From the NCBI RefSeq assembly GCF_963921235.1, contig NC_086097.1, forward strand, positions 147,500,001-147,564,000: DNA of 64,000 nucleotides, written 5' to 3'. The translations under genes and the position numbers were made by a program. Origin of the DNA: Mobula hypostoma. Lineage: Eukaryota. Below the pieces are notes generated by a model that did not search any database, had not been told where the DNA came from, and saw nothing but the letters and a program-made list of their open reading frames with translations. Positions within the stretch are counted from its first letter, which is position 1; each line of letters starts with the position of its first letter. This document shows positions 1,995 through 62,805 of this stretch, in pieces.

Positions 1995-4900
1995 CAATAA
2001 TTCCCAGTGCCAGGAAAAGGATGTCTCAGATCTGGTCCATAGCAGTCTTAAGAGGGTGGTGAGCATTCATAAGTTACGGTACACATTGACCAATGTACCA
2101 ATGGCGTAGGTAGGAAAAGAGATGAAATCAGATCTCTGAAGCAAAATGCCTATTCAAAGCTCTGTCATAGGTAGCAACTGCTAGGAACGCAGAGGAAAAG
2201 ATCCAGCGATGCTCTCAAAGCTTCCTTGAAAGACTGCAATAACCTCAAAGAATCCTGGGAATCCTTGGACCATGACCAATCAAAGTGGAGAAACTTGGCC
2301 GTGTGGAGGATCAGAGGGATCTTGGGGTCCGAGTCCATAGGACATTCAAAGTTGCTGTGCAGGTTGACTCTGTGGTTAAGAAGGCATATGGTGCATTGGC
2401 CTTCATCAATCATGGGATTGAGTTTAGGAGCCGAGAGGTAATGTTGCAGCTATATAGGAACCTGGTCAGACCTCACTTGGAGTACTGTGCTCAATTCGGG
2501 TCACCTCACCACAGGAAGGATGTGGAAACCATAGAAAGGGTGCAGAGGAGATTTACAAGGATGTTGCCTGGATTGGGGAGCATGCCTTATAAGAATAGGT
2601 TGAGTGAACTCGGCCCTTTCTCCTTGGAGCGACGGAGGATGAGAGGTGACCTGATAGAGTTGTACAAGATAATGAGAGGCATTGATCGTGTGGATAGTCA
2701 GAGGCTTTTTCCCAGGGCTGAAATGCTTGCACGAGAGGGCATAATTTTAAGGTGCTTAGAAGTAGGTACAGAGGAGATGTCAGTGGTAAGTTTTTTACAC
2801 AGGGAGTGGTGAATGCGTGGAATGGGCTGCCGGTGATGGTGGTGGAGGCAGGTACGATAGGGTCTTTTAAGAGACTCCTGGATAGGTACATGGAGCTTAG
2901 AAAAATGGAAGGCTATAGGTTACCCTAGGTAATTTCTAAGGTAAGGACATGTTTGGCACAGCTTTGTGGGCCTAAGGGCCTGTATTGTGCTGTAGGTTTT
3001 CTATGTTCTATGTTTCTATGTTCTAAATCCTGGAGAGAGAATATAGGCAGCCAGGTACAAAGCTGAAAAGCAGGACCTCATGGATACTAATCTCTGGACT
3101 GCTGCCTCTGCCATGTACCAGTGAGGGTAAGAATAGAATGCTATGGCAATTGAATGTGGGGTTGAAAAATTGGTGCAGATTTGTGGATCATTGCGATCTC
3201 TTCTGGAGAAGGTATAACCTGCACAAAGGGACAGGTTACACCTGAACTTGAAAGGAACCAATATCCTTGCGGGCTGTTGGGGAGAATTAAAAAGTTAAAA
3301 CCAGGTTGGCAGGAGGATGGGAAACACAACGATAGGTCCAAGAATGGAGCAGATGCAGGGTGTAGAGAATCTGTGAGAAAGTCTAGGCAGTTGACAGGGC
3401 AAAACTGCAGTTAGTGGGCTGCGTTGAAATGTATCGGCTCTAATGCGAGAGGTATCAGGAAAAGGAGAGTATGGATCAGCACATGGAACTGTTTTGTTGC
3501 TATTATAGAGAGATTACAGAAAGGGAGAATGTTGTGGGGAGATCATCTACTGAGTCTATGTAAATGCAAGTCTGAAACAGAAAAGGAGCAATCCCCCGCC
3601 CCAACAGCAGCAGAGACACTGAGTAGCAGATCAAGAGGCAAATTATGGAAAGGTGTAAAAATAACAGGGATATTGTCTTGGGTGACTTCAGCTTCCTTAA
3701 TATTGATTGCTACCTCCTTTAGTACAAAGTGCATAGATGGGGCAGAATTCGTTAAGTGTGTCTAGGAAGGATTCCTGACACAATATGTGGACAGGCTGAC
3801 TAAAGGAGAAACCATTCTGGATCTTATACTAGACAATGAACTTGGCAAGGTGACAGATCTCACAGTGAAGGAGCATGGAAGTTCTGTATAGGTTTGTCCC
3901 ATTGAGGCAAGGAAAGGATGGAACAGTGGAGGAACCATGGTAGACAAGAGAAATGGAACATTCAGTCAAGATGATGAAGGAAGCATACTTAGGTTTAGGA
4001 AGCAAGGATCAGAAGGGCTCTTGACAGTTATAAGGTAGCCGGGAAGGAGATTAAGAAGAGATTTAGAAGAGCTAAAAGGGGACATGAGAAGACCTTGGTG
4101 AGTAAGATTAAGGAAAACACTAAGGCATTCTACACATACATGAAGAACAGGATTAGAGTGAGGGTAGGACTGATCAGCGATGAAAGAGGAAACATGTTCC
4201 AAGAGCTGGAGGAGGTAGGGGAGCTCCTTAATGAATGTGTTTCTTCAGCATTGACCAGTGAGAGGGAACTTGACAAATGCAAAGACAGTGTAGAATAGGC
4301 TAGTATGCTGGAACATGTTGACATTAAGAAAGAGGAAGTGTTGGAATTTTCAAAAGACATTAGAATAATTAAGTCCCTGTGGCTGGACGGGATATACCCC
4401 AGGTTACTATAGGAAATGAGGGAAGCAATTGCTGCTTATAGGGCGATGGTATTTGTGTCCTCACTGGCCATAGGAGTAGTGTCAGAAAATGGAGCATGGA
4501 AAATGTGAGACGTTTGTTCAAGAAAGGTGATAGGGATAATGTGGTGTGTTATCAATCAGTGAGTCTTTCATCAGGCTGGGCAAAGTATTGGGACAGGATT
4601 TACCAGCTTTTGGAGAAGCATAGTCTGATTAGGGATAGTCAGCAAAGCTATGTGAACGGTAGGTTGTGCCTCACAAGTCTGATTGACATTTTTGAGGAAA
4701 TGACAAAAAACAAATTGATGAAGATAGAAGAATGGATGTGGTATAAATGGATTTTAGTAAAGTGTTCGACAAGGTTCCCCATGATAGGCTTATCCAGACA
4801 GTCAGCAGGCCTGTGATCCAGGGAATCTGCTACATGGACTCAGAATTAGCTTGCCCACAGAGGGCACATCAGTAGTAGATGGAGTATATTTTGCCAGGAG

Positions 4901-9249: not shown

Positions 9250-10400
9250 GAAATGCTACAGGTGCTGTAAACTCTCAACATTTCAAGAAGCAGCAACACT
9301 ATTTCACCATTTCAATATTGCATGGAAAGTGCGTCACCATGTGTTTTTTGTGTCCAGAAGGCAGCAAAATATGCAGTGGAAGATGAGGTACTGCTCTTGA
9401 AGCTTCCATCGGGCTTTGTAACAGTGGAGAAAGCCACAGACAGATAGACATGGGCATGGAGGATAGATAACTAAAGTGGCAAGTAGCAGAAAGCCCAGAG
9501 TCACTCCTGCAAACAAACTTTGGAAAGTCTTATTATTAGAGCAAAATTAACAGGAATAGAGGATTTAGAAGAATGTTAAGGAGGTCATGTGGGTCAAAGA
9601 TTAATTAGGATAGCTGTAGCAGTCTGTAGGCTTATGATGTATTTTTGCCACTAAGATAAATAGAGTTAGATACAGGGAGATCCCGAAATGGAAGAATCAG
9701 AAACCATGTGAAGGTGAGAGAAGGGAAGAAACCGACAACAAATTTCTGAGTTCTGTAATAAATAGTAGTCATTAATATAAAAGAAAAATATTTGAGGGAA
9801 GAAGTCTGAAATAGAGTGCAAAGATTCTTCCATGTTTCCTACAGAAAGACATAATTTGGGCCATGCAAATTCCTAAGCCTACACTAATGATGTAGTGAAT
9901 GTCATAGAACTGAAATGTTGCCTTTTTCCACTTTCTGGTTGAGTTTTAATGGTATTTTCTATTTTTGTTTGATTTGAAGAAATTGTTTAGCCATGTGGAT
10001 AAGCGTGTTGGTGGAGGAATCTCAATGGTCTTCATTTCGGGAAGAAGTGGATGGCACCCAGGCCGAACCAGTGTGGCTTGGACATGCAAAGGGTTTATAC
10101 ATTCACAGCAATGATTGGCAAGTTGGGTCCAGGGAACTGGAAATAGTTATAATGAGGACACAAGAAACTACAAAAGCTGGAATTTGGAGCAACAAACAAA
10201 AGACTGGAGGAACTCAACAGGTCAGATAACATCTATGGAGGAAAACAGTTGACATTTTGAGTCAAAATCCTTCACCTGGACAGTTATAGTGAGGCCTCAT
10301 GTAATGTGTCGGGTCAGCATCTCATTTGCCATCTGGCATATTGCAGTTTCCTGCCATTAATATTGAACTCTACAACTTCAGATAATTCCCGTTCCCTCTG
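9250..10400. mobile_element. Cluster of highly decayed Penelope fragments in both orientations
   Basis: 9370-9520 and 10155-10282 resemble minus-strand parts of the 10435-13722 element. 10290-10385 on the plus strand encodes a decayed QHLI..L..LQ..INIELYNFR*. Confidence 0.55.
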
Positions 10401-10536
10401 ACTGAACGAGCCAGAACATCCATCTGTGATATTAAACGCAAACAACAGGAATTCTGCAGATGCTGGAATTTCAAGCAACATACATCAAAGTTGCTGGTGA
10501 ACGCAGCAGGCCAAGCAGCATCTATAGGAAGAGGCG

Positions 10537-10574
10537 CAGTCAACGTTTCAGGCCGAGACCCTTCGTCAGGACTA
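10537..10574 (-). ncRNA. Minimal type I hammerhead ribozyme motif in the Penelope 3' end
   Basis: The minus strand reads UAGUC-CUGACGA-AGG(GUCUCGG)CCU-GAAA-CG-UU-GACUG. This gives a CUGANGA/GAAA core, stem I UAGUC:GACUG, stem II AGG:CCU, a palindromic ACGU in place of stem III, and a UH cleavage site. Confidence 0.85.
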
Positions 10575-10867
10575 ACTGAAGGAAGAGTGAGTAAGGGATT
10601 TGAAAGCTGGAGGGGGAGGGGGAGATGCAAAATGATAGGAGAAGACAGGAGGGGGAGGGATAGAGCCGAGAGCTGGACAGGTGATAGGCAAAAGGGGATA
10701 CGAGAGGATCATGGGACAGGAGGTCCGGGAAGAAAGACAAGGGGGGGGGTGACCCAGAGGATGGGCAAGAGGTATATTCAGAGGGACAGAGGGAGAAAAA
10801 GGAGAGTGAGAGAAAGAATGTGTGAATAAAAATGAGTAACAGATGGGGTACGAGGGGGAGGTGGGGC

Positions 10868-13720
10868 CTAGCGGAAGTTAGAGAAGTCGATGTTCATGCC
10901 ATCAGGTTGGAGGCTACCCAGACGGAATATAAGGTGTTGTTCCTCCAACCTGAGTGTGGCTTCATCTTTACAGTAGAGGAGGCCGTGGATAGACATGTCA
11001 GAATGGGAATGGGATGTGGAATTAAAATGTGTGGCCACTGGGAGATCCTGCTTTCTCTGGCGGACAGAGCGTAGATGTTCAGCAAAGCGGTCTCCCAGTC
11101 TGCGTCGGGTCTCACCAATATATAAAAGGCCACATCGGGAGCACCGGACGCAGTATATCACCCCAGTCGACTCACAGGTGAAGTGATGCCTCACCTGGAA
11201 GGACTGTTTGGGCCCTGAATGGTGGTAAGGGAGGAAGTGTAAGGGCATGTGTAGCACTTGTTCCGCTTACACGGATAAGTGCCAGGAGGGAGATCAGTGG
11301 GGAGGGATGGGGGGGACGAATGGACAAGGGAGTTGTGTAGGGAGCGATTCCTGCGGAATGCAGAGGGGGGGGAGGGAAAGATGTGCTTAGTGGTGGGATC
11401 CCGTTGGAGGTGGCGGAAGTTACGGAGAATAATATGTTGGACCCGGAGGCTGGTGGGGTGGTAGGTGAGGACCAGGGGAACCCTATTCCTAGTGGGGTGG
11501 TGGGAGGATGGAGTGAGAGCACATGTACGTGAAATGGGGGAGATGCGTTTAAGAGCAGAGTTGATAGTGGAGGAAGGGAAGCCCTTTCTTTAAAAAATGA
11601 AGACATCTCCCTCGTCCTAGAATGAAAAGCCTCATCCTGAGAGCAGATGCAGCGGAGACGGAGGAATTGCTAGAAGGGGATGGCGTTTTTGCAAGAGACA
11701 GGGTGAGAAGAGGAATAGTCCAGATAGCTGTGAGAGTCAGTAGGCTTATAGTAGACATCAGTGGATAAGCTGTCTCCAGAGACAGAGACAGAAAGATCTA
11801 GAAAGGGGAGGGAGGTGTCGGAAATGGACCAGGTAAACTTGAGGGCAGGGTGAAAGTTGGAGGCAAAGTTAATAAAGTCAACGAGTTCTGCATGCGTGCA
11901 GGAAGCAGCGCCAATGCAGTCGTCGATGTAACGAAGGAAAAGTGGGGGACAGATACCAGAACAGGCACGGAACATAGATTGTTCCACAAACCCAACAAAA
12001 AGGCAGGCATAGCTAGGACCCATACGGGTGCCCATAGCTACACCTTTAGTTTGGAGGAAATGGGAGGAGCAAAAGGAGAAATTATTAAGAGTAAGGACTA
12101 ATTCCGCTAGACGGAGCAGAGTGGTGGTAGAGGGGAACTGATTAGGTCTGGAATCCAAAAAGAAGCGTAGAGCTTTGAGACCTTCCTGATGGGGGATGGA
12201 AGTATATAAGGACTGGACATCCATGGTGAAAATAAAGCGGTGGGGGCCAGGGAACTTAAAATCATCGAAAAGTTTAAGAGCGTGAGAAGTGTCACGAACA
12301 TAGGTCGGAAGGGATTGAACAAGGGGTGATAAAACAGTGTTGAGGTATGCAGAAACGAGTTCGGTGGGGCAGGAGCAAGCTGAGACAATAGGTCGGCCAG
12401 GACAGGCAGGTTTGTGGATCTTGGGTAGGAGGTAGAAACGGAAAGTGCGGGGTGTGGGAACTATAAGGTTGGTAGCAGTGGATGGGAGATCCCCTGAGTG
12501 GATAAAGTCGGTGATGTTGTGGGAGACAATGGCCTGGTGCTCCTTAGTGGGGTCACGATCGAGGGGTAAATAAGAGGAGGTATCCGCGAGTTGTCGCTGT
12601 GCCTTGGCAAGGTAGAGGTCAGTACGCCAGACTACAACAGCACCCCCCTTATCGGCGGGTTTAATAATAAGGTTAGGATTAGTGCGGAGGGAGTGGAGAG
12701 CAGAGCGTTCCGAAGGAGTGAGGTTGGAATGGGGACAAGGTGCGGTGAAGTCGAGATGGTTGATGTCCCGTCGGCAGTTAGCAATAAAGAGATCCAGAGC
12801 AGGCAGAAGACCAGAGCAGGGTGTCCATGAAGAAGAGGAGGGTTGAAGACGGGAGAAGGGGTCATCGGTGGGGGTGGAAGAGTCCTTGCCGAAGAAGTAG
12901 GCTCGGAGACGGAGACGGCGGAAGAAAAGTTCCGCATCGTGGCGAACACGGAACTCGCTGAGGTGTGGGCGAAGGGGGACAAACGTGAGGCCCTTACTGA
13001 GAACAGAGCGCTCTGCCTCCGACAGTTGAAGGTCGGAGGGGATGGTAAAGACCCGGCACGGATGAGAGCTGGGATCAGAGGGGGGAGGGGGGAGGCTGGG
13101 GGTGTCAATGGAGAGGGGAAGGTTGGGGTGAAAGGAAGATGGAGCCTCTGAGGGCCCAGGAGCTGACGGTGGGATCTGAGGAAGACGGGGCTGCGGAGTG
13201 GTGGTGGGGGAAGGGGAGACGGGAGTCACAACAGCAGCACATAAAGACCCGGCCTGGAGTTCAAGGCTGGAGTCGCAGTTGGTGGTTGTGCAATCGCTGT
13301 GAAGGTGTCCATGGTCGTTGCTGGAGTCCGGGTTTTGAATATGTCCTGAGGTGTTGGAGCCGCCGAGATCAATGGCAGGGGCCGCAATCTGAAGTTCATG
13401 CCTGCTAGCGTCGGGGCCGGCAGGCTCTGGAGTCCGTAGATGTAAGATCTTGCGATCTTTGCCTAACATGACAAAGTCAAAAAAACGGCGATTGCAGGCG
13501 TGGATCCGACGGAGGATGAAATAACGGGTAGGACCATTACAGACCGCGAAGAAAGTGTCCCGAAGGTGTGGAAGGGTCTGGGATAGAGACACCAAGTACC
13601 TCCTCATGGCGGAGAGCATCGCCTTCAGAGCTTGACGGGAGAAGCGGCGAGAGGCAGAGTCAATAAAATGTGAGTACCTGGGATCCTCAGAAGGTCCAAA
13701 TTGAGAGGCTTGGAAACGAA
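10868..13720 (-). pseudogene. Penelope RT plus GIY-YIG endonuclease ORF, disrupted
   Basis: The 649-aa ORF 11670..13619 stays open upstream to the 5' truncation point. A premature TAG at 11670-11672 (NAIPF*QFLRLR) and apparent 1-nt deletions near 11583 and 11212 separate it from the GIY-YIG ORF ending at 10868. Confidence 0.92.
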
Positions 13721-13822
13721 TCTCTGTGATATTAGTTCAGTTCCAGTCTCTTCATTAACACAACTTAAATTTACTGGCCAGATGCACAGCTTTGCCTTTT
13801 GCAACCCTTACAACCTTGTGTA

Positions 13823-17332: not shown

Positions 17333-19486
17333 CTCTAACCACTCCCTCTGGCACCAACAATCATTCCATATTCCACAGTCAAAGTCACTTAGATCAAATT
17401 ATTTCCTCATTCTGTTGTTTGGTCTGAACAACAACTGAAACTCTTGACCATGTCTGCATGCTTTTATGCGTTGAGTTGCTGCCACATGATTAGCCTTTTC
17501 GTATATTTGTATTAACAAGCAGATGTGGAGATGTACTTAATAAAGCAGCCACTGTGTGTCAATCTCTACATCTAGGATGGGATGAGTGTTGAGATAATAT
17601 ACAGAGAGGCATATCCTGCAATCTTCTTTACTCATTCTCTTTCTACCTTCTTTCGTGATGTCCAGTTGGAATATATATTCATGATTAACAAAAATCATCA
17701 ATGTCTTCCAGTCTACAATATCACAAAATATTTCCAGGAAATGTCCATAAACAATACTAAAAATATTTCACTGACAAATGTTCAGGGTGTTCATGGATGA
17801 AATAAATGCACTAAAACCCTATGTTACCACTACCACAAAGCATCATTTCTGAAACTTGTGACAATTTCACTCATTCTAAGATATTACTGTATTATGTTTT
17901 ACAAAGAAGTAAAATAACCTCCATGGAGGATCTAGTTTTGGATTTCAAAAGGACTTAGAAGTTAAGTGAAAGTTTGCTGTTTGAGATTGTAAAAGTGAGA
18001 CAGCAAGCAGAATTGACTTACAGTCTAACGTGAAATCCAAGAAATTGAGGTAACTCAATCTTAGTACTTTAAGAAAAGTACTTTAAGAAAAGGAAGTTCA
18101 ATGTTTATTATATTAGTCACAGGTGTTTTTTCTTCATTAGTTCCAACCAGGTATCCTCTATGGCCAAAGAATCTTCTATGTGCATGATTCAAAACCAGAA
18201 GATATTAGTCAACTCAGTTCAATCAGCATACACGTAGCAAGAAATTATCTCAATTTTGTATCCAGCTTTCTTTCTTTAATCCCATGCAGATAAAAACATG
18301 TCCATCTAAACACCATGATAGTAGCTGGATATGTATGTTTCAGGGTAAGATGTCTTTGTTCAATACTTGCTTATACCTTGGATGATGCAGGGCATTGTCT
18401 CTCCTTCACTTAAGGAAAGTGACAGCTGCTCTTGCACACAGTGGCAAATCTGCAAATGGCTTTGTTCTCACTCACATCTTGCAAATATATTGATTATCCA
18501 GATGTCTAAGTGTAGTTGTTGATGTAAAAGGAAATGTTCTATGATGATCCTTTTTCTTGATTGCCCTTCTTTTATTTTCTTCTATGTTAGATATTTAGTT
18601 TTATCTCATGTTTGCTAAGCTTGCTTTCTAAATAGCAGCTGCCATTTGAAATGGCACAATTGTAAGTAAACTTTCAACTATATTACTTTGTTTAACTTCC
18701 AGTCATAAAAAGAATTCAGTCTTCAGTTCTTAAAATGTAAATGGAAAACAGCTTGAGATTAAAAAACCTCTTCCTAGAACAGCTTTGTAAACAGGCTCTG
18801 TATTTTTAAAGAAACTTTGTCTGTTAAGAGTCACAGAAACTGCTTTACTATTGCTCAAGAGTAGAGTATAAGACAATGGATTGTTTAATTTGGGTTGCTT
18901 AAATAGACAAGCTGACTCTTAAACTGCTTAGCTCAAGGTAGCTTGCAGAACCAGATCGATATTTCATTTTGCATATCAATAACTGACGTGTTTATAGTTG
19001 GAAGAGATTTATGTAATCAGGAGTTAGTTTTACAGCATTAATAATAGAAGGAAGATGAGCCAAGTATGCCGTACAGTCCCTGGAAGATGCTCCACAACCA
19101 GTAACATCATAGCTAATCTCATCTTTAATCTAAAATCTATTTTCAGCTCTGATTTTCATAACCACCCATTTTAATGGGTTTCAAGGAAACTTTGTGGATA
19201 TTATGCAGTTTTTCCAATTTGTTTGTAAAAGTTGAAATAAATTAATGCTGTGTCTTCTGGAAAATCCATTGTTCAATGTGCCTGGCATGATATAGAGTTA
19301 GAATGGTTCCCTGATTAGTTTCAATTACCCAAAAGGTTCAAAGAGGAATTCTCCATTAAATTTTCTTTGACCAAAATTTTATTGTACATCATTTTTTAAT
19401 CCTTCCCTGATGTTTTCAGAAACTCCCAGTGGGATGCGTAATACAAGTGTTGTAATTACAAGCCATTGAAAATTCATGAGCCTTGC

Positions 19487-25000: not shown

Positions 25001-28000
25001 ATCAGCCAACTGTCACAACAGGTCAGCAGCAGGTGCCATCTCATTGGCTCTTCACTTAACCCTGAAACATCTGGACAGTGAAGTCACATACATCAAGGTG
25101 CATTCCATTGATTAGGGCTCTGCATTCAATACTATCTTCACCTCAAAACTAATCAATAAGCTCCAAAACTTTGGCCTCAATACCTCCTCCGCAATTGGAC
25201 ACTTCACTTTCTCACTTGCAGACTCTAGTCAGTACAGGTTGACAACATTTCCTCCACAGTCACCACAGGAGCACCACAAGGGTGTGTATTAGCCCTGTGC
25301 CCTACTTGCTTTCTACTTATAACTGTGAGGCTAAGCACAGCTCCAATACCATATTTAAGTTTGCTGATGACACCACTGTCATTGGCTGAATTAAGAGTAG
25401 TGACAAATCAGCAGAAAGGAGGGAGATTGAAAATTTGGCTGAGTGATGTCAAACAGCATTGCTCGGTGAACGCCAGCAAATCCAAGTAACTGATTATTGA
25501 CTTGAGGAGGAGGAAGTAAGAGGACAATAAGCCAGAACTCATCATGATATCAGACATGGAGAGGGATAAATTTATCAGCATTATCATTTCAGAGGACCTG
25601 TCCTGGGACCAGCACTTAAGTATCATTACAAAGAAGACACAGTAGCACCTCTACTTTATTAGAAGTTTGTGAAGATTCGGCATGTCACCTAAAACCGCGA
25701 CAAAGTTCTATAGATGCATGGTGGAGAACATACTGACTGGTTGAATCACAGCCTGGTATGGAAACATAAATGGCCTTGAACAGAAAAGCTTACTAAGAGT
25801 ATTGGATACTGCCCAGTCCATTATGAATGCAGACCTCCCTGCCATTGAACAGATCTACATGGACTACTGTCGCAGGAAAGCAGCATCCATCATCAAGGAC
25901 ACAGGCCACACTCTCTTCTTACTGCTGCCAATAAGAAGAAGGTACAGAAGCCTTAGGACCCACACCACTAGGTTCAAGAAGTGTTATTACCACTGAACGA
26001 TCAAACTCTTGAACGAAAGGGAATAAATTCTTTCAACTTCACTCACCCCTGCACTAAACTGATCCCACAACCTATGGATTCACTTTTAAGTACTCTTCAT
26101 CTCATGTTTTCAATATTTATTGCTTTTTTTTTTTCTTTTTGTATTTGCACAGTTTTTTTTGGTTGCGCATTCTTTTTTCTGTAGGGAAAGTAATTAAGAG
26201 AAACGCAAATAATTCGCAACCACTGACATTGAGTTGGGGTTTCATTCTGACATAATGATGTTATTATGTAAAGATTTTTAGCTCATTTTTGTGTTTAGAT
26301 TTTGGAATTCAATAAAACGTGTAACAAGTTTCATTAGGCATAAACGCTTTACTTAATTTTATTTTCGAAAACCTACATTGGTGACTCCAATGCTCTCGGA
26401 TGATTCCAGAGTTATTGAATATGTCGGCCAATGCAGTTGTTCTGAAACTGCCAGACCTTTGGGAGCAAAATGTTATTGCTTGGTTTATATAGCTGAGGCC
26501 CAGTTCGCTCAGCGAGAAATCACAGCCGACGACACCAAATTCTATTTCGTGGTAGCATCATTCAGCAGTTTCATGGCTGTAAGAGTGATGAGTCTGCTTG
26601 AACATCCGCTTGAATACGATAAATATCGATTGCTGAAAACTCACCTTTTACTGACTTACAGACTATCAGAGTCTGAACACACCAACAGTTATTCTCCCTG
26701 CCCAGTCTCGACGATAATAGGTCTTCGGAGCTCATGGACCACATGCTCTCTCCCCTGGGAAATCACCATCCTTGTTTTATTTTTAAAGAACTCTTCATAC
26801 AGCAAGTGCCTAATCAAGTTCAAATAGCCCTCACTAATAAACCCATGAAGGACAATAGGGAGCTTGCTAAGATGGCTGATAGCCCACACTCATCCAGGCA
26901 GCGGTGCATTGTTCCTCCTCCTTTCTCTACCTCAATGAGCTCGGTCAACAAGGCCCCCAACATAAGGATGCCTGCGGTTTCGAAACAGACATCAGGCCTG
27001 TGCTTTTACCATGCTTGCCTTCTTAGGAAGTGCCAACAACCTTGCAGCTTCGAGGGTGTCAGCACATCAGGACATCAGAGGTTTGTGAACACTGTGAGTT
27101 CCAGCTGCCAGAGTTGTCTACTGTTCATTACAGACACTCTTTCAGGGCAACGCTTCCTGTGTGACATGGATGCTCAAGTGAGTGTTCTTACAGCATTGCC
27201 TATTGATGAGAAGGCGAAGATGAAATCTCGATGGTGTCCACCAATGGCATCCAGACTTATGGGACATGATGGATGACACATCCGTGGGCAACTTTACGTA
27301 TGGGACTTTGTCTAGGCTAAAGTGACTAGACCTCTGCAGACTTCCTGTGTGCCCAAGGACTGTTAGTTGATCTGAAGAACAGCCAGACATTGTCAATGAC
27401 ATTTTGGGCATTATCCTGCTCCCCCTGTAAGTTCCCCACAACAACTCTGTCAAGCGCATGCAACAACACATGTGAGTTTACCTGACTGCTGGACGAATTC
27501 CCAGACTTGACCAAGCCCACATTCTCCACTACAGTCACAAAACATCAGGTTGAGCGCCACTTTCCCACAACTGTGTCCATGCAAAGACTGGACCCAGAAA
27601 AGCTGACAACTGCGAAGGATAAGTTTGCCAACGTAAAAAGTCTTGGCATTGTATGCCAGTCGAATAGCCCAAAGACTTCACCCCTCCATATGGTCCCTAA
27701 TTCTCTTAACTGCCAGTTAGGGGCCCTGCCGTTAACTTTCTCGGCCATCGCATTTCCGCAGAAGGTGCAAAATCCCTCCCATCAAATGTAGATGCTATTA
27801 TGGATTTCCCACCACTCCACACAACAAAAAAACTACAGGAGTTTTTAGGTATGGTAAATTTCTATCATCACTTAATTCCCTGAGCTGCCAAAGTTATGCT
27901 CCCCCAATATAGTGCACTGAAAAACAATACCCCTAATCAAGTGCTTGACTGGTCAATGGACATGACCAGGGAATTTGATGATACCAAATGAGCTCCTTCT

Positions 28001-28152
28001 AACACGACGCTACTGGGGTACCAACTCCCCAATGCACCCATAGCTATTACTACTGATGCCTCAGACTATGCTGTGGGTGCTGTGCACGAAGAGTTGGTCG
28101 GAGACGTGTGGCAGCCGCCCGCCTTCTTCAGCCAGCTGCCCCATCCCCCTGA

Positions 28153-28709
28153 TTACCTTAAACAACTGTGATGTTGGGGCTGCTGGACCATCAAGTCATC
28201 AGCTGGGTCCATCCACCTTCAGGCGTTTCATCCCCTAACCCAGAACTTCTTCAGGATGGTGGGACAGCAGAAGGTGATCAGTTCTACCCCCGACGGTCAG
28301 ACATCCAGCTACTATCGTCTCTTTGCAGCCAAAGCCAACTGGAGGCTCTCTCTGTTGCTTGGCCCATGGTGTTAACGGCTCTCTTTGTGGTTCTCCGTTG
28401 TATCCCTAAAGCTGCCATCACCTTCCAGCATGGCATGGCATGGCGGGAAATCCTCTTGCCCCCACTTCAACAGGGAAGTTCCATGTCTGCCAGCCTTGCT
28501 GTCTGCAGTCCGCCACTAGGTCTTCATACCTCACAAGCTTCCTCTCGTGAGCCTCTTGGCATCGGGTCTCCCGTGGTACTGTTAGCTCTATCACCACGAG
28601 CTTCTTTGCACTCTCTGACAATAGTAGAACGTCTGGTCGAAGTGTGGTCTCTACTATTGGTGGGAACACCAGCTTCTTTTCAAGATTGACCTTCATCTCC
28701 CAGTCCTTT
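28153..28709 (-). mobile_element. HERO/R2-group 3' fragment (restriction-like endonuclease) inserted in the Gypsy RNase H
   Basis: Reads RPDVLL..VVIELTVP..EAHERKLVRY..PVEVGARGF. The Gypsy AFFS..PPE|RKYST sequence is split at the junctions. Confidence 0.9.
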
Positions 28710-42347: not shown

Positions 42348-44058
42348 ATTCTTCTTGTCGTCGCGTGGCTATCCCTCGAGATTGAGGATGATGGTCTTCG
42401 TTCTGTTGATCTATTTATGGGCTCTCAAGTGGCTTATGAGTCCAATCTTGGCTTTGAAAGTTCTTCCACATTCAGGACAGGTAGTCCAAGATGGCAGATC
42501 GGGCTTTTGTTGTTGCTGCCTCGCTTTCCATTTTCTTCTCTTTTCTTCTAATTCCGCACATCTGGTGGCTTCGAAAGTTGCTCATCCTTCTCGGATGATG
42601 GCTCGCCAGAGTTTCCTGTCCTTGGCATTGGTTTCCCAATTGTTGATGTCGATGTTACATTTCTTCATGTTGACCTTTAGGACGTCTTTGAATCTCTTCT
42701 GTTGTCCGCCTCTTTTACGTTTGCCTTCTTTAAGCTGGGAGTAGAAGATTTGTTTTGGCAGACATTCGTCTTTCATCTGAACAACATGACTGCTACATCT
42801 TAGTTGGTTCTTGATGATATAGGCTTCAATGCTTGTTGTTTTTGCTTCATTTAGCACACTGACGCTGGTTCTTCTATCTTCCCAACTGATATTTAAGATG
42901 TTTCGAAGACAGCACTGATGGAACTTTTCAAGTGCCTTCAGATGTCGTTGGTATGGTGTCCAGGTTTCTGATGCATACAGGAGCGTTGGGATCACCACTG
43001 CTTTGTACACTAATATTTTGGTGTCTATTCGGATGTCACGATCATGAAAGATTCTTGTTCGGAGATGTCCAAAAGCTGTTCCAGTGCTTTTAAGACGATG
43101 TTGGATCTCGTCATTAAGGTCGACATTGGAGGAGAGGTGACCTCCAAAATATGGAAAGTGGTCCACGTTTTCCAGGGTTATTTTGCCAAGTTGAACTGAT
43201 GGTTCTATCCGATTTGTCTCAGTTGGTGATGGCTGGTAGATGATCTGAGTCTTCTTGGAATTGATGGTAAGTCCAGATTTCATGTATGCACAGTTGAAAG
43301 CAGTCAGAATCTGTTGTAAGTGGTTTTCTGAGAGAGCTGCAACACTGTTGTCATCTGCAAATTGGAACTTGATGAGAGAACTCATGGATGTCTTCGTTTT
43401 GGATTTGAGACGGGCAAGATTGAAAAGTCTGCCATCTGTTCTGTAGACAATTTCGATTCCTGGGGGTAGGTCATCCTTGATAATGTGGATGATTGTCGCA
43501 ATGAAGATGGTGAACAAAGTTGGGGCAATCACGCATCCCTGTTTTACTCCTGATCTAACTTGAAAAGGCTCACAGTTACTGTTGCTGACCATGACTGTGG
43601 CAAGCATGCCATCGTGGAGGAGTCTCAGGATTCAAATGTACTTTTCAGGGCATCCATAGGTGGATAGGACATCCCATAGGAGTTCCCTTGATACCGAGTC
43701 AAAGGCTTTGGTGAGGTTGATGAATGCCATGTACAAAGGTTGAAGCTGTTCACAACATTTTTCTTGTAGTTGTTGCACTGTGAAGATCATGTCAATTGCT
43801 CCACGTGATGGTCTAAAACCGGCTTGTGTCTCCGGAAGGATCTTCTCAGCTAAAGGCTTGAGCCGGTTGTTCATGATGCGGGTGAGGATCCTTCCTGCTG
43901 TTGCTAACAGGGAAATTCCACGATAGTTTCTGCATTCGGATCAACCGCCTTTCCTTTTGTAGATGGTAATGATAGCTGAGTCTCTAAAGTTTGCTAGTAC
44001 ATCTTCATTTATCCAGATCTTGATGAGAAGTTGATGCAGTTGCTAATGAAGAGGTACC
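42348..44058 (-). mobile_element. RTE-clade LINE, 5'-truncated RT
   Basis: ORFs 43632..43874 (QAGFRPSRG, LTKAFDSV) and 42582..43607 (GVKQGCVIAPTLF, QFADD, LLYASETW, LPKQIFYSQL). A (GAA/GAC)n tail is at about 42348-42363. Confidence 0.93.
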
Positions 44059-45150: not shown

Positions 45151-47814
45151 TACCTAAGGGGAAAAAAGTGGAAGATTCAGCAAGTCAAAAAAGATCCTTA
45201 GGTCTGGAGGGCTCCTGACTGCATATTTTCTTTGACTGTGCTCTGGCTCAGTGTACATTCTTAACACTGGGTCATGACCACTTGCTGACACTTCCATGTT
45301 GTACTAAACCAGAGTGCAACCTCTTGGCCAAACAAAAGATTCCATCAAGTCATCCCAAGTGAATTCAAAAATGTAATCTCTTAATAAATATAATTTTAAA
45401 ATCCCTCACTAACGGCAACATATTCAGATATATGAGGTGATGGAGATGATAGGTATGTGCAGAATCCTTCTAAGTTTGTTACTGTTGTGTTGTAATGGAA
45501 TTTTCCCAATATCACGAATGTGTTCTGTAGTTGTTCTTGGAAGTTCCAAATAAATAGTCAGCTATGTGTGTCCCCTGGGTGGTCCCAAACAAAATAGAAT
45601 TAACCTACAGTGTCCCAACCTTAGATTGCCATCTATATTATTCATCACATTCCACAAGTGGCATTCCCATGACCCTAACACCTCTGCTGTATCAATAAGC
45701 TAGAAAATCAAATAAACCTAAGCCAGAAATTCATGCTATATATAATGAGCAATGATCTTTATCCACTTCTTTTCCCCATATTTTGAAACTGAGTTTCTTA
45801 ATAATAGTGACCTCCAGGATGTTAGTGGCTGGAATTGGCATTTTCATTATATTTAAAGGATAGATTTAAATAGAATCCAGAGATAAATTTATCATACAAG
45901 TGTAGTGGGTATCCGAAATGAGCTGCCAGAGGAGGTGGTGGATGCTGGAAGAGTAATGCATTTAAAACGCGTGTTAATGGGGACTTGAATAAGCAGGGCA
46001 CAGAAGGAATACGAAATTAATGCAGATAAGTAGGATTAGTATATATGTACAGTAAATGTAGGCATAATAGTCAGCATATACACAGTGGCTAAAAAAAAAA
46101 ACTTTTTTCTATACGATACAACTATATTATTCCATAACTAGAGACTTCAAAGTATGTGACATTTAATGTATTGAATGCTTCAATATGAAATATCACAAGT
46201 AAGTTCTTTTCAGGAAAAAAAAGTCAAATTGATATAAGGTTTGCCATATGTTTGCCACATACAATTTAATCTCCATATACTGGATCCCAATCTCATGAAT
46301 GAAACATAGCTCATTTCTAATCATTCTACTGTTATGAAAAAGGCAAAACAGCTTGTTGTGACTTATAGATGAAGACATACATGGATATGAGGTGAGAATT
46401 GGACGAATAGAGGGTAAAACCCTTAGTAAAGCAATCAAAGTGATCAAGAACCACATTCACCCTGGATATTTTGTGTAAGAAGATGGAAAAGACCTGAAAG
46501 TATGTACCACCAGTGTCAAGGACAGTTTCTATCCCACTTCATTTGACTATTGAATGGTCTCCTAGTACAATAATATGGACTTTTGACTTCTTGCCCTGAA
46601 CCTTACTGTCTGTTTGCACTGTACTTTCTCTTTAACTGTAACACTTCATTCTGCATCCTGTTATTCTTTAACCCTGTATTATCTTCATACATTGTTGTAA
46701 TGCAATGATCTGTAGGGTGGACATACAAAAATAGTACCTCAGTACATGTGTCAACAATAAATCAATTTACCAAACGCTCGCTATATCATTGTGCAATATC
46801 TACTTTGTACAACGCAGATTCTCAAATACAGTAAGTAAAATCAATAACGAGATTTTTGAATATATCAGCTCAGGGAAAATGCTGATCAGAGTGCCCTTTT
46901 GTGAGTGAACAGGTACACCTCAGTTTAATTGGGAGGAGTTCACCCCTGAAAGTATAGCACTCCCTTAGTACCATTGCAATACTTTCATATTTGACTATTC
47001 CAACGATTTTGGATGATTCTGACGATACCTGTCGTTCAAGCTCAGTTTGCTGTTATCATGCCAAGAAGGTGCACAGTCAGATGCTGTGGGAAGAGAAATG
47101 GATATTGAGGGTGAAATGAGAGGGTTAAAACAAATCTTTTTATTTGGAATTGAGTTGTCCACTCACAGTACACATAATGAACAAACCTATTAATTAGAAA
47201 GATAAGTAAAACATAAGGTCTTAATTCACAGGGTCCATGAAGCCTTGAGGCATTCAGAAGTAAGCCATTAAGGAATGTGACAACTTGTTTATCAGAGATG
47301 AGCAAAATCATTTTGGATGGCAAAATAAAGTCTTGACTGATAAGATTTACGGAAACAAGTGAAATAAGTTCAGTGGAAAATGCAAAATCTTCCCTATATA
47401 TCTATCATTAAGAAATATTTAGTTTAAGCATTGCAGATGACTGCATGCATAGATTAGGGAAAAAAGCCTGGGCTTTCCTGAATTTGTAATTGTGAGTATC
47501 GAGCAAGCTGATCTGATTTCTGTCCTCGTACCTATGATCAGTGCCGTGGACCTCTAAGAGTTGCCGTGCCAGGCATTGTAAATCAGAGTGCTCGATGAGC
47601 AGAAGGGCTTGAGATTTGCTACTTTATCAATTATTCTGTCTTAGACTTATTGTTTTGTTAATCCTTTACATCACTTAGTAAAAGGAAGAGGGACTTGTTC
47701 TTTTATCAATTATTTTACACATTGTTTTAGTGTTTTGTATATACTTATATGCTTTCCGCATCACTTATTATATTCTAATAAAACATCTGCAGCAATCTGA
47801 AAGTGGTGTCAGAT

Positions 47815-48260
47815 GCCAACTTTTGTACCCTGGAAAGGGAGCCCCATTATCAGATTGCGTTTCAGCTGGATCTCCATATTTAGCTAATAAAGTTTTAAGA
47901 CAACAGAAAGTGTTGTCCTGCTCTGCCTTGACAGAAAGGACAGCCATCAAAAGACCTGAATAGATGTCAACCATGCTTAAGGGATACTTGTATCTCAGTT
48001 TTAGGGGAAGTAGACCAATGTAAGCCCTCTCTGCCATATTCGCGCAGGGCAACTGCCAGGCTATTTCATTAATGGTCTAGTTTTACTAGTTGGCATGCCT
48101 CACATTGGGGCATGCATACACCTGCAGCAGCCTTGAAATATTTCTTCTCCCTCAATGATCCAAATCCCCTTGTGGTGGCTACTTCTAGAATATGCTGCAT
48201 AAGCAGGGAAGGAAGAATTCCTTCAGAATTGTGGAAGAGGAAGGAGGGGTTGGAAGACAT
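47815..48260 (-). pseudogene. Retroviral-type integrase relic (ERV class III/spuma-related-like)
   Basis: A zinc-finger remnant CEACQ is followed by YIGLLP..YKYPLSMVDIYSGLLMA..YGDPAETQSDNGAPF, giving the first two catalytic Asp residues. It is truncated before the Glu. Confidence 0.7.
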
Positions 48261-48389: not shown

Positions 48390-48732
48390 CTATACCTCTT
48401 TTCCTCACCTGCCTATCACCTTCCCCTGGTGCTCCCCCTTCTTCCCTTTCTCCTGTGATCCAGTTTTCTCTCTTATCAAATTCCTTCTTATCCAGCCCTT
48501 TACCTTTCCTATCCACCTGGCTTCACTTATCATCTAGATTTTCCTCCCACTCCTCCCCGTGCCCTTTTAGTTTGCCATCTTCCTCCTTCCTTTCCAGACT
48601 GATGAAGAGTCCTGGCCTGAAAATACCAACTGTTTATTCAATTCTATAGATGCTACCTGACCTGCTGAGTTCCTTCAGCACTTTGTGTGTGTCTCTTTGG
48701 CTCTCCTGCATCTGCAGAATCTCTTGCGTTTA
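48390..48732 (+). mobile_element. Penelope 3'-end relic with a decayed hammerhead at 48595-48632
   Basis: A pyrimidine-rich UTR is followed by CTGATGAAGAGTCCTGGCCTGAAA..ctatagatgctacctgacctgctg..catctgcagaatctcttg, collinear with 10435-10700. Confidence 0.85.
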
Positions 48733-57460: not shown

Positions 57461-59450
57461 TTAATATATACTATATAGATGAATAGGTAGTTTTACAACA
57501 GGTTTGGTTAATATTTGTCCAGCCAAAATAAAATTTTCTGAAACTTTGGAAACTGCAAAATTAGTGTTAAACAAACTGCAAATTAAAGATCCCTTCTTGT
57601 AATGTGTGCTTGAAGTAGCAATGTAATAAGTATCATTTACCAAATGGAATGCCCTGTTATTGACAGGCAAAATAGATATAGAACTATTATTGAAAATAAT
57701 TCAGAAGATGTGTAACTCGGATAAGAAACGAACCCACAATCCGTTAACCCATTCTTAACTAAATCCTCTGGACAAACCCAATATTCTCCTTTTGATGACA
57801 GAAAGACAAATTTATGCCCTTTGTAGATCCTTGCCACTCAATAGCAAAAGTAAGGAATATGAAGTACTGCTCCAACATACAGTGGTCCAGACCCATTCCT
57901 ACAATTTCCAAGGAGGTGATTTGTCAAGGTGAATTCCCTAATTTAGTACCCTGTGGTGTTATTACCAACCTGTTCCTTTGACTGTTTGACTGAAATCTAA
58001 TCAGGAATCCAAAGGTTGTCTAATTGTACCATGTTAACTCCTAATGCAGAAAGTAACCATGAGGTATACACTGTACATACAGCATCCGTAGCACATTGAG
58101 TAGTTTCATTATTAACTCCGTCAATCATTCGATTTGTTATATTACACAAGGGTTGTAAAATGACCTGGATGAGGAAGTGGAGGGATGGGTTAGCAAATTT
58201 GCAGATGACACAAAGGTTGGAGGTGCTGTGGATAGTGTGAAGGGCTGTCAGAAGTTACAGTGGGACATTGATAGGATGCAAAACTGGGCTGAGAAGTGGC
58301 AGATGGAGTTCAACCCAGATAAGTGTGAAGTGATTCATTTTGGTAGGTCAAATATGATGGCAGAATATAGTATTAATGGTAAGACTCTTGGCAGTGTGGA
58401 GGATCAGAAGGATCTTGGGGTCCGAGTCCATAGGATGCTCAAAGCTGCTGCGTAGGTTGACTCTGTGGTTAAGAAGACATACGGTGTATTGGCTTTCATT
58501 AATCGTGGAATTGAATTTAGGAGCCAAGTGGTAATGTTGCAGCTATATAGGACCCTGGTCAGACCCCACTTGGAGGACTGTGCTCAGTTCTGGTCGCCTC
58601 ACTACAGGAAGGATGTGGAAGCCATAGAAAGGGTACAGAGGAGATTTACAAGGATGTTGCCTGGATTGGGGAGCATGCCCTATGAAAACATGTTGAGTGA
58701 ACTTGGCTTTTTCCCCGGGCTGAAATGGTTGCCACAAGAGGACACAGGTTTAAGGTACTGAGGAGTAGGTACAGAGGAGATGTCAGGGCTAAGTGTTTTA
58801 CTCAGAGAGTGGTGAGTCCGTGGAGGCGGATACAATAGGGTCTTTCAAGAGACTTTTGGATAGGTACATGGAGCTTAGAAAAATAGAGGGCTATGGGTAA
58901 GCCTTGTAATTTCTAAGGTAGGGACATGTACGGCACAACTTTGTGGGCTGAAGGGCCTGTATTGTGCTGCAGGTTTTTCTATGTTTCTATGTGGAGCATT
59001 TCCAAAACTAGATTTGCTTGTTTTTCACCAAAAGTGCTAACTCCTCCCATCTCCTCATAATCTCAATTTATAATTTCTTTCATCTTTTGGCTTAGATAAT
59101 TTAATTAAGGGTTTACCTCTGTAATATCTAGCATATTTAGCATGGAAACTCCAGTAGCATATCCTAATCTCATAAATTCAATTACCTCTTACTTCGCCTC
59201 TCTCATGTTTTAAATTCTGAATGGGTACACAGTTCAAATAAAAATGTTGGAAAAGCTCCTGGGGGCTTATTCCACACCAGCTAGGAATTTGGAGGGATGT
59301 CAAGTTGGACGTCACTTGAAAATAAGAAACAAAACACAGTAGAATAACTTATTCTTCCATTTCTTCTAATACAAGTCCGATTCCCTTTGTATCTGCCTGA
59401 ACCTCATCACACAACGAAGGACTAGTAATGGTTGGCACTACAAAGTGGTA
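57461..59450 (-). pseudogene. Decayed env-position gene encoding an F-like class I fusion glycoprotein (lokiretrovirus-like), split by CR1
   Basis: Manual translation: CDEVQADTKGIGLVLEE..SNLTSLQIPSWCG..RRSKR/VIEFMRLGYATGVSMLNMLDITEVNP*LNYLSQKMKEIIN*..[CR1]..CNITNRMIDGVNNETTQCATDAVCTVYTSWLLSALGVNMVQLDNLWIPD*IS..VGAVLHIP..TKGINLSFCHQK/GEYWVCPEDLVKNGLTDCGF..AFHLVNDTYYIATSSTHYKKGSLICSLFNTNF. It lies directly downstream of the integrase on the same strand. Confidence 0.72.
58157..58992 (+). mobile_element. CR1 LINE fragment inserted into the env-like gene
   Basis: Reads VSKFADDTKVGG and RPHLEDCAQFWSP, with a ttctatgtttctatgt tail. TGT is present at both junctions (58154-58156, 58990-58992). Confidence 0.93.
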
Positions 59451-59843
59451 TCAGTTGTTGTCAACTCGACCATGGGGTAAGGTGTGTATGGAAGATCTGA
59501 GGCCCCAGAGCAACTGGGATTGAGTTATCCAGGGCACGTGTTAACTGATGACCTCATTTCTGATGTGTGTCCACACCAACGGTGCCATTATATTCACAAT
59601 GAAGATATACTTGAGTTATAAGCCCTTTTTCCCTAAAGCTGGACCCAAACAAAAACATGAATTCCCACCATTATCCGAGTAATTTCACGTAGGACAAGAT
59701 ATTATAGACTGCGACATAATGGTCTTCCTTAATAGTGTCAATTAATTGCTATACCCATTTGTCCTTTACAATACCATCATACTCAGGCTCTGATAAATCT
59801 AACCAAACCAAGAATTTTAACTTTTTCATTTCTCTCCTGGTCA

Positions 59844-60281
59844 TCAACTTGTAGGTCCAATAGAAGAAGCTTTGGTGGTAGGGAATATCATAAGGACATA
59901 AAATAAGACAGTGACCCATGTGGTCCTGTGCTGTTCAGCCATTTTAGCCAAAATTGCTTTTAAAGTCCTGTTCATTCGTTCAACAATTCCACTGGATTGG
60001 GGTTGATAAGGGATGTAGAACCTCCATTTTACCACACACTGCTTCATTAGATTTTGCATTACCTGTGAGGTGAAAAGAGGACTTTGATCTGATTCTAGAC
60101 TCTTTGGCAATACCCAATGGGTAAAAACTGACTTGAGCAAATTCCTGGCCGTAACCTTAGCACTGTTATTCCTAGTTGGGAAAGCCTCTATCTACTTGTT
60201 GAAAGTATTCACTCTCAGTGGGATATATTTCAGTCTTCCAGGGGATGGAGTAAAGGTCCTACAAGATTAATGTGCAAGTTT
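59844..60281 (-). pseudogene. Integrase core relic of the same LTR retroelement/endogenous virus
   Basis: Reads NLHINLVGPL..NTFNK*IEAFPTRNNSAKVTARNLLKSVFTHWVLPKSLESDQSPLFTSQVMQ..PYQPQSSGIVERMNRTLK (D..D35E core). Confidence 0.9.
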
Positions 60282-60289
60282 TTGGGTGA

Positions 60290-62200
60290 GCTGAATTTGG
60301 TGCAAGAGGTCATTCGTTGGTAAAACAGTTCATGTTTTTTAAAAAGCTCCAGTCTTTTGGCTCTTTACAGCAGGTTGAAATCAGTGTAGGTCCAATAAAA
60401 GAGGGAGGTGTAAGTGGATAGACCATTGTGTGAGTGGTGGTCAGACTTTGGCTCAACAGGCTTCGGCAAGAACAGGCTTGGCCAAGCACAGGTGGAGGTT
60501 CTAAGTAAGTAAGTAATAAGGTTCCTATTAAGTATTTTTCTCTATTACTACATAGCTGGTGTTCTGGGAATGGTGGTGAAGGTTCTGTTATGTTCTTTGT
60601 GTGAGATATGGGAACTCTGAGAGACCTCTAGTCTCCCTGATAACTACATCTGCATGAAATGCACTGAGCTACAGCTCCATGGAGACCATGTTAAGCAACT
60701 GGATTTGCAGCTGGATGGCATTCAGCACACATGGCAAAATGAGGAGAAGATAGATAGGAGCTACAGGGAGTCAGGTGTCACTCCACTCTTTAAGAACGAG
60801 GGAAACAGAAGAGAGAAAATTATAGGCCAGTTAGCCTGATTTCAGTGGTTGGAAAGATTTATGAGTCTATTATTAAGGAGGTGTTTTCAGGGTACTTAGA
60901 GGCATATGATAAAAAGGACAAAATCAGCGTGGTTTTCTAAAGAAATTTTGCCTGACAGATCTGTTGGTATTCTTTGATGAAATAGTAGGCAGGATTGACA
61001 AAGAAGAGTCAGCGGATGTTGTTTACTTGGATTTTCAGAAGGCCTTTGACAAGGTGCCACACAAGAGGTTGCTTAACAAGATAAGAGCCTATGGCATTAT
61101 AGAAAAGGTAATAGCATGGATAGAAGATTGGCTGATTGGCAGGAGGCAAAGAATGGTAATAAAAGGAGCCTTTTCTGGTTGGCTACTGGTGACTAGTAGT
61201 GTGCAGTGGAGATTGGTTTGGGGCAGCTTCTTTTAACATTAAATGTCAATAATTTCAATGATGGAAGTGATGACTTTGTAGCCAAGTTTGTAGATAATAT
61301 GAAGATAGGTGGAGTTGCAGGCAGTGTTGAGGAAGCAGGAAGTCTGCAGAAGAACTTAGGCAGATTTGGGAGAATGTGCAAAGAAGTGGCACGTGGAACA
61401 TAGTGTGGGGAAGTATATAGTTATGCACTATGTCAGGAAGAATAATATCATAGACTGTTTTCTAAATGGGGAGAAAATTCAAAAATCAGAGGTGCAGAGG
61501 GACTTGGGAGTCCTCATGCAGGATTCCCTAAAGGTCAACTTGCAGGCTGAGTCAGTGATAAGGAAGGCAAATGCAATGTTAGCATTCATTTTGAGAGGAT
61601 TAAAATGTAAAAGTAAGGATGTGATACTGAGACTTTATTAGGTATTTGTCAGGATACATTTGGAATATTATGAACAGTTTTGAGCCCCTTATCTCTTATC
61701 TAAGAAAAGATGTGTTGGCATTGGAGAGGGTCCAGAGGAGAATTACGAGAATAGTCCCAAGAATGAAAGGTTTAACATATAAGGAACGTTTGATGGCTCT
61801 GAGCCTGTACTCACTGGAATTTAGAACAATGTAGGGGGATCTTATTGAAATCTATCAAATAATAAAAGGCATAGATTGAGTGGATGAGAAGTGGATATTT
61901 TGTCATTGTGGGGGAGTCTATGACCGGAGCACACAGCCTCAGAATTGAGGGATGTTCATTTAGAAGAAAGATGAGGCAAATTTCTTTAGCGAAAGGCTGA
62001 TGAATCTTTGGAATTCATTGCCAAATACAGCTGTGCAGGCCAAGACCAAGGTTCTTGATTAATCAGGACATCAAAGGTCACAGTGAGAAGGCAGGAGAAT
62101 AGGGTTGAGAGCAATAATAAATTAGCAATGATGGGATAACAGAGCAAATGTAATGGACTGAATGGCCTAACTCTACTCCTATGTCTCATGGTCTTATGGT
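60290..62200 (+). mobile_element. CR1 LINE with 5' UTR and ORF1 zinc finger fused to RT by an internal deletion
   Basis: ORF1 CSLCEIW..DNYICMKC..LQL (60570-60770) joins directly to VTPLFK (RT, about 60777). It also has VYLDFQKAFDKVPH and a tail cctatgtctcatggtcttatggt. Confidence 0.88.
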
Positions 62201-62529
62201 TAACCCATGGTCCTTCTATAGGGCGTGTGTATCCTAAAACTCAGTCAAACTACTGCAAACATATTGTCTGAGTGTATTACCACTCCCTGAAGGATATCTG
62301 TCTGGATGACTGACATCAAAAAACCATAGCAGCAAGATCTGTCGCTTCTGCACTCATTGTTTTAGGTAACTTGATCATGATACTCTCAATCTCTACTCCT
62401 TCTTCATCCTCTATGTATATACTACATTCTACATGCCTCTGTCCATCCTGAACTGATGACAATCCATCAACAAAAATCCTTAAGGAGAAAACTTCCAGTC
62501 GCATGACTTTATTTTCTTCTCCTGATTTT

Positions 62530-62805
62530 AACTAATTTGCCAGGGGGATGAGAACCGGAGTGATAATGCTGAAGACGAGATTGTTGGTTTACAAACAGAG
62601 GCAATGTGTAGTGAGGCTCCTAGCAAGGAGAGGCTAATGATAGGGCAAGATTGCAGTCGACAGGATGAGTTGCAACATAAAAGGTGGACAGAATCTAAAA
62701 GAGTGAATACAGGACTGAATGTGTTATATTTGCACAGTAAACAGAATAAGGTATATGAACTTATAGCACATATATGGATTGGCATGCATGATGTTGTAGG
62801 GGCTG
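62530..62805 (+). mobile_element. CR1 ORF1/ORF2 junction fragment
   Basis: GLNVLYLHSKQNKVYELIAHI....DVVG is the start of a CR1 APE endonuclease. Confidence 0.65.

Follow-up and report, generated by a model that had tools for sequence, protein, structure and literature searches.

The 64,000-nucleotide stretch of Mobula hypostoma DNA analyzed here (the window) contains, on its minus strand, a short motif with the appearance of a hammerhead ribozyme, which raises the question of whether this is a genuine ribozyme copy and whether it cuts any RNA at this locus. A preliminary description of the window had read the motif as an intact minimal hammerhead in the 3' end of a Penelope-like element (PLE), which could self-cleave in tandem or in trans with a second copy and could cut a host transcript running on the minus strand. 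Judged by its letters, the 38-nt stretch is a real copy of the minimal hammerhead known from PLEs, and it is of a kind already described, the minimal PLE hammerhead of 2014. The copy in the window is quite likely just a passenger, without meaningful cleavage at the locus, and its parent ribozyme would be one that acts as a dimer with the help of the element protein.

The minus strand at 10574-10537 (38 nt) is identical to the letters given in the preliminary description, and the complete core claimed there is present, namely C3, U4, G5, A6, G8, A9, G12, A13, A14, A15.1 and U16.1 together with H17. G12-A15.1 correspond to 10549-10546, C15.2 and G16.2 to 10545 and 10544, U16.1 to 10543, and H17 is the U at 10542, a numbering that agrees with the cleavage position proposed near 10541/10542. 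Stem I has the five base pairs expected, four Watson-Crick and one U-G, which fits the 2-6 bp range for PLE minimal hammerheads, and the ACGU palindrome indeed replaces helix III, with C10545 and G10544 as the palindromic 15.2-16.2. The positions of these and the other features are collected in Table 1.

Table 1. Features of the hammerhead motif and of the element that carries it (positions in the window).
Feature	Position	Strand	Remark
Minimal type I hammerhead motif	10537..10574	-	predicted scissile bond 10542/10541
Core box C3-U4-G5-A6-C7-G8-A9	10563..10569	-	sequence
Unpaired A (10562), then stem II 10561-10558 with 10553-10550 (G-U, G-C, G-C, U-G), 4-nt loop	10550..10562	-	
G12-A13-A14-A15.1, palindromic helix III remnant (10546-10543) and U17 (10542)	10542..10549	-	
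Predicted competing hairpin, 10588-10576 with 10569-10558	10558..10588	-	prediction only; would hide C3-A6, G8-A9 and the 5' stem II strand
Decayed hammerhead relic of greater age, beyond the duplication and 291 nt downstream	10246..10285	-	U4, A6, G12 and C15.2 changed
12-bp target site duplication, 3' copy	10423..10434	-	same word as the 5' copy; flanks the element end
3' untranslated/terminal-repeat region	10435..10867	-	family depth ends at ~10434
GIY-YIG endonuclease frame, CxxC and two-His (CCHH) motif	10868..11266	-	stop 10870-10868
RT thumb and linker frame, CX4CxxC zinc-finger motif	11191..11598	-	between frameshifts at ~11590 and ~11210
N-terminal region and reverse transcriptase (RT)	11670..13722	-	in-frame stop 11672-11670; terminal repeat absent upstream
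12-bp target site duplication, 5' copy	13723..13734	-	the window has exactly two occurrences of the word

In the 64-kb window, the plain core pattern has one match against 0.05 expected, with a match in 5 of 100 shuffles, and the full descriptor (both stems and the palindrome) is matched in 1 of 400 dinucleotide shuffles. A model search of the site had been proposed as a check; a covariance model built from 10 hammerheads of related elements, with the window left out, places the site 10537-10574 first of the 21 matches listed, with a score of 23.4 bits and a rough E-value of ~1e-4. The exact family motif has no match in public metagenome contigs. A chance match to a short consensus might be suspected from the shortness of the motif, from a search of the window against Rfam 15 that gave no matches at gathering thresholds, and from the 71-nt region around the motif, which folds no better than shuffles (z 0.41), as is expected for a motif without helix III. 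However, the shuffle rate of the descriptor, the E-value of the independent model, the homologous hammerheads beside related elements and the location behind a PLE endonuclease, which is the expected place, refute this explanation and leave it a probability close to nil.

Stem II had been drawn as three pairs (A-U, G-C and G-C; 10562-10560 with 10552-10550), a register that is probably wrong by one base, as judged from homologues and pair probabilities. In the window, the register with the bulged A has a pair probability of 0.96 versus 0.03 for the register drawn previously, and it results in a G-U closing pair at 10.1-11.1 and a stem II of four pairs, two of which are G-U. Homologues were sought with a descriptor that permitted either register, in the best 80 of the 497 confirmed loci where public metagenome contigs carry related elements. 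The scan revealed 19 hammerheads in 16 of these 80 loci, and in all 19 an unpaired A follows A9 and precedes G10.1; three to four pairs form with the bulge and none without it, and the closing pair is always G-C. In an alignment of 10 distinct motifs of the same short class, from which the 9 others were excluded as duplicates or as having other helix III types, the bulged register is 97.5% paired, and the closing pair of the previous register is unpaired in 10 of 10. The covariation anticipated for the stems is also observed in these 10 homologues, with changes on both sides at 4/4 stem I pairs and 2/4 stem II pairs, although the homologues are related to each other and the counts do not represent independent events. 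The published consensus of PLE minimal hammerheads likewise has the extra base and G10.1 (PMC4209133). The bulge is missing from 2 of the 56 rows in print, and one of the two closes with an A-U pair, which provides a rare precedent for the register drawn previously (PMC4209133).

The assignment of the motif to the 3' end of a Penelope element is supported by the frames around it. An RT (PF00078, E 1.4e-5, below the Pfam cut-off) and a GIY-YIG endonuclease (PF01541, above the cut-off) are encoded on the minus strand, and the motif lies on the same strand, the sense strand of the element. It is part of the 3' terminal repeat, where the endonuclease stop precedes it by 299 nt and the element end follows after 107 nt. 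Full-length homologues align in three frames, with frameshifts at ~11590 and ~11210, and the CX4CxxC motif of the RT-EN linker is located in the frame 11589-11194 (minus). A CCHH endonuclease motif and a CX2-5CxxC zinc finger in the RT-EN linker are the marks of EN+ Neptune/Nematis elements (PMC8557442). By these features, the element is a broken EN+ PLE of Neptune/Nematis type, in which the RT is followed by a C-terminal GIY-YIG domain and the linker carries a zinc finger. In addition, a long Pro/Ser/Thr-rich stretch at 13460-13060 (minus) shares one open frame with the conserved N-terminal PLE motif that follows it.

Of 8000 candidates scored, 2002 are relatives of the RT region; the best are a ray sequence, which is 91% identical across 78% of the query, and a shark sequence with 74% identity. 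Among the 33 related loci with room behind the endonuclease (within the best 80 of 497 loci), a sense motif is found 92-195 nt behind the endonuclease in 7, and the strict descriptor detects no motif within 400 nt in the other 26. The related loci L007 (1087-1060 minus and 3582-3609 plus), L009 and L022 contain a second, inverted hammerhead, which is the inverted terminal-repeat arrangement described for PLEs.

For the family of the element, contigs of sequencing runs were aligned on 10350-10950 at 80% likeness; they number 176,286 in X1, 137,613 in X5, 11,816 in X9 and 0 in X21, where X1 and X5 are DNA runs, X9 is only guessed to be RNA, and the family depth mixes subfamilies and is not a copy number. 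In X1, the depth drops ~190-fold across 10433/10434, which coincides with the 3' boundary of the element. The 12-bp duplication at both ends and this drop in depth thus delimit a unit of 3288 bp that has only one terminal repeat; for PLEs, target duplications of 8-10 bp have been published (PMC3846280). No upstream terminal repeat or upstream hammerhead of the element was found in the window. A transposition-competent tandem PLE has two terminal repeats, two hammerheads and an intact ORF, whereas the element here has one motif, one stop and two frameshifts.

The word "intact" in the preliminary description holds for the invariant core letters, all of which are present, but not for position 17, where the window copy has a letter that is in the minority in the family. 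Here, C accounts for 81.5% (X1), 71.4% (X5) and 94.4% (X9) of the depth, and the window copy has U. Hammerheads with U17 cleave more slowly than those with C17. The U17 of the window copy is most simply explained by a CpG transition, the C-to-U direction being suggested by the family majority and the CpG context. The U at position 11.1 might similarly be regarded as CpG decay private to this copy, but this was rejected because U is the majority letter of the family, with C in only 20.6% (X1), 32.0% (X5) and 17.7% (X9) of the depth. The window copy differs from the X1 majority at at least 13 of 516 positions (~2.5%, hand count from the 40 variant rows listed), and none of the 11 invariant core positions is among these 40 rows, where fewer than one would be expected.

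Neither U17 nor the G-U closure is foreign to this class of ribozyme. U17 satisfies the NUH rule (PMC3884650), and the G10.1-C11.1 closing pair has a consensus above 80% and is not universal (PMC4209133). In a hand count of the representative motifs in the text of Fig. S3 of the same study, U17 occurs in 24 of 56, a G-U closure in 8 of 56 and both in 4 of 56 (PMC4209133). Since U17 and the G-U closure are both present in published motifs, neither need inactivate the ribozyme, and the motif passes as a formal hammerhead.

Further similarities with the metazoan PLE minimal hammerheads include the CUGANGA and GAAA boxes, the unpaired base 9/10.1, G10.1, the palindromic 15.2-16.2 and the absence of helix III, as well as a U-rich 5' flank and the occurrence of a sole 3' motif in a truncated element (PMC4209133). 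The differences are the U at 11.1, which gives G-U in place of the consensus G-C, and the short stem II with two G-U among its four pairs (PMC4209133). The motif of an Acropora Neptune element in Fig. S3 has the same core-to-core letters as the motifs in the related loci L009, L022, L051 and L073, and cartilaginous fishes are absent from that figure's 56 rows (PMC4209133). The RTs of these four loci are 56-61% identical to the window RT over the best segment, so that the Acropora motif gives an indirect link to the Neptune clade. A literature search for a hammerhead ribozyme in an elasmobranch found none, which is no proof of absence from print. Vertebrate non-LTR retrozymes have type I hammerheads derived from PLEs, and one genome in which they are reported is chondrichthyan (Li, Clavereau and Pollet 2026, bioRxiv 10.64898/2026.07.22.740005); the supplements of this preprint may be the place where the present chondrichthyan family is listed. 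A retrozyme consists of short non-coding units repeated in tandem, with two or more consecutive motifs (bioRxiv 10.64898/2026.07.22.740005), in contrast to the window, where a solitary motif ends a coding element; the motif is accordingly not that of a non-LTR retrozyme.

Cleavage of the copy in tandem, as had been suggested, is not supported, as the single 3.3-kb copy is bounded by its 12-bp duplication and has no cis partner. The nearest relic (10246..10285) has four changed core positions and is thus no usable partner; the relic motifs at 10278 (minus), 6140 (minus) and 48599 (plus) were all rejected as cis partners because their cores are broken. The second covariance-model match, at 56356 (E 0.02), consists of the first box only and was also rejected. 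Dimerization of the window motif in trans with another RNA of the family is conceivable.

The regions 10285-10150 (minus), 6150-6050 (minus) and 48590-48730 (plus) are decayed terminal-repeat relics of related PLE subfamilies, with broken hammerhead cores, and a short older PLE RT fragment with 45% identity to P0002 is located just downstream of the nearest relic at 10151-10026 (minus). Directly after stem I of the motif, a pyrimidine tract ending in AG is followed by ATG (10534-10519, minus), an arrangement that recurs in the three relics and in a related subfamily's loose-end consensus. It resembles a splice acceptor within the terminal repeat, such as PLEs with introns have.

Predicted folding suggests a second obstacle to cleavage. 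In the native flanks, the hairpin listed in Table 1 is predicted to appear before the motif is fully transcribed and then to persist, with a hammerhead-like fold approximately 10 kcal/mol worse (-11.3 versus -21.4) and a predicted probability of core sequestration of 0.95-1.0. For two copies, the double-hammerhead fold has an energy of -10.9 kcal/mol versus -27.1 for the best two-molecule fold, with nearest-neighbour energies that omit the tertiary contacts of the core. The variant rows listed for the family leave the hairpin pairs mostly intact. When the 30 nt upstream are shuffled, only 7 of 500 shuffles reach its stability, but the core is also buried in 73 of the 500 and predicted to be buried in only 4 of 15 distant homologues, so that the hairpin may simply follow from the pyrimidine-rich flank. 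A rather improbable alternative, in keeping with the rarity of such stability among the shuffles and with the variant rows listed, is that in this subfamily the upstream pyrimidine tract forms a selected "anti-hammerhead" hairpin that locks the core until the element protein or a second copy refolds the RNA. The hairpin would then fold first in transcription and keep the RNA uncut for reverse transcription, and such a built-in off-switch would explain the protein requirement of PLE hammerheads and, if conserved, supply a concrete mechanism for protein-assisted cleavage.

The preliminary description would have the copy competent and cleaved in vivo in trans with other RNA of the family, cutting a read-through or host transcript of the minus strand. 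The NUH triplet and every invariant letter of the core are in place, the family is extremely abundant in the DNA runs X1 and X5 and also present in the X9 contigs (RNA status guessed), and trans double hammerheads have been proposed for a cricket satellite RNA (PMC2837043). Nevertheless, no convincing host exon was found on either strand among the 361 ORFs scanned, which leaves the cutting of a host transcript unsupported. These ORFs are stop-free and at least 55 aa long (out of 612 with 45 aa or more), with shorter, element-internal and compositionally biased ORFs excluded, so that the scan would miss short exons and its result is compatible with a long intron. Cleavage in trans is further disfavoured by the predicted sequestration of the core in its native context, and published experience with such motifs points the same way: monomers of PLE minimal hammerheads are inactive, cleavage by dimers and trimers is weak, for dimers even in cis (Cervera and De la Pena 2014, PMC4209133), and no RNA-seq ends are found at the site of the green anole motif (PMC11167929). 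In vivo cleavage of this copy in trans is therefore decidedly improbable.

Apart from retroelement domains, the ORF scan gave a few weak matches, including a marginal SWIM zinc finger at 18349-18519 (plus) in 1 of the 361 ORFs (E 4e-4, 20.3 bits against a cut-off of 19.6). This match could be chance, a transposase remnant or a plus-strand exon opposite to the hammerhead. Other retroelement remnants, with RT, RNase H, integrase and DUF7041 matches, occupy 26357-28170, 42414-43940, 47771-48076 and 58159-63998.

The one tested case of protein-assisted cleavage among the systems compared is Poseidon_Ac, a PLE of the green anole that also has a minimal hammerhead in its terminal repeat; this hammerhead cleaves, with C3/G8 rescue, and does so only with the element protein (Frangieh et al. 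2024, PMC11167929). Poseidon_Ac belongs to the Penelope/Poseidon clade, starts its ORF inside stem II, and is intact and expressed, whereas the window element is broken and has the Neptune/Nematis linker zinc finger (PMC11167929). The anole hammerhead is dispensable for insertion in vitro, where hammerhead-dead mutants insert unimpaired (PMC11167929), and Naiad elements thrive without canonical hammerheads (PMC8557442). These observations would suit a motif kept in the family for a role other than cleavage, as a site of protein binding or dimerization or for promoter or intron signals, with cleavage incidental, and the pyrimidine tract-AG-ATG after stem I, here and in three relics, is consistent with such a role. 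The element also continues 107 nt past the scissile bond in this copy, and ~107 nt in the family, as would suit a template that had not been cut, although the template may also have been antisense or religated. However, related elements keep the exact catalytic letters, with C, A or U at position 17, while their stems change on both sides, and the anole motif does cleave, with C3/G8 rescue (PMC11167929). A non-cleavage role is for these reasons unlikely.

The reading preferred here, of a passenger motif, can be summarized as follows. The motif is the terminal-repeat hammerhead of a very abundant Penelope-like retrotransposon of Neptune/Nematis type. In tandem members that are active, two motifs would pair via the ACGU palindrome and exchange stem I strands, giving a double hammerhead that would cut slowly after position 17, probably only with the element's own protein, as other PLEs suggest. 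The window copy was inserted once, lacking a terminal repeat at its 5' end, and the insertion duplicated 12 bp of the target; since then it has acquired one stop, two frameshifts and a presumed C-to-U change at the cleavage site. With no cis partner and with a core that the upstream hairpin is predicted to hide, the copy is most likely an inert passenger with no meaningful cleavage at the locus. On the opposite side, all invariant core letters are kept, and the abundance of the family (176,286 contigs in X1) makes trans partners conceivable.

As one of very many copies of a described motif, the single locus matters little. A high-copy family of cartilaginous fish is good material for testing the role of the hammerhead in PLE mobility (PMC8557442, PMC11167929), a young tandem copy being better suited than the copy in the window.
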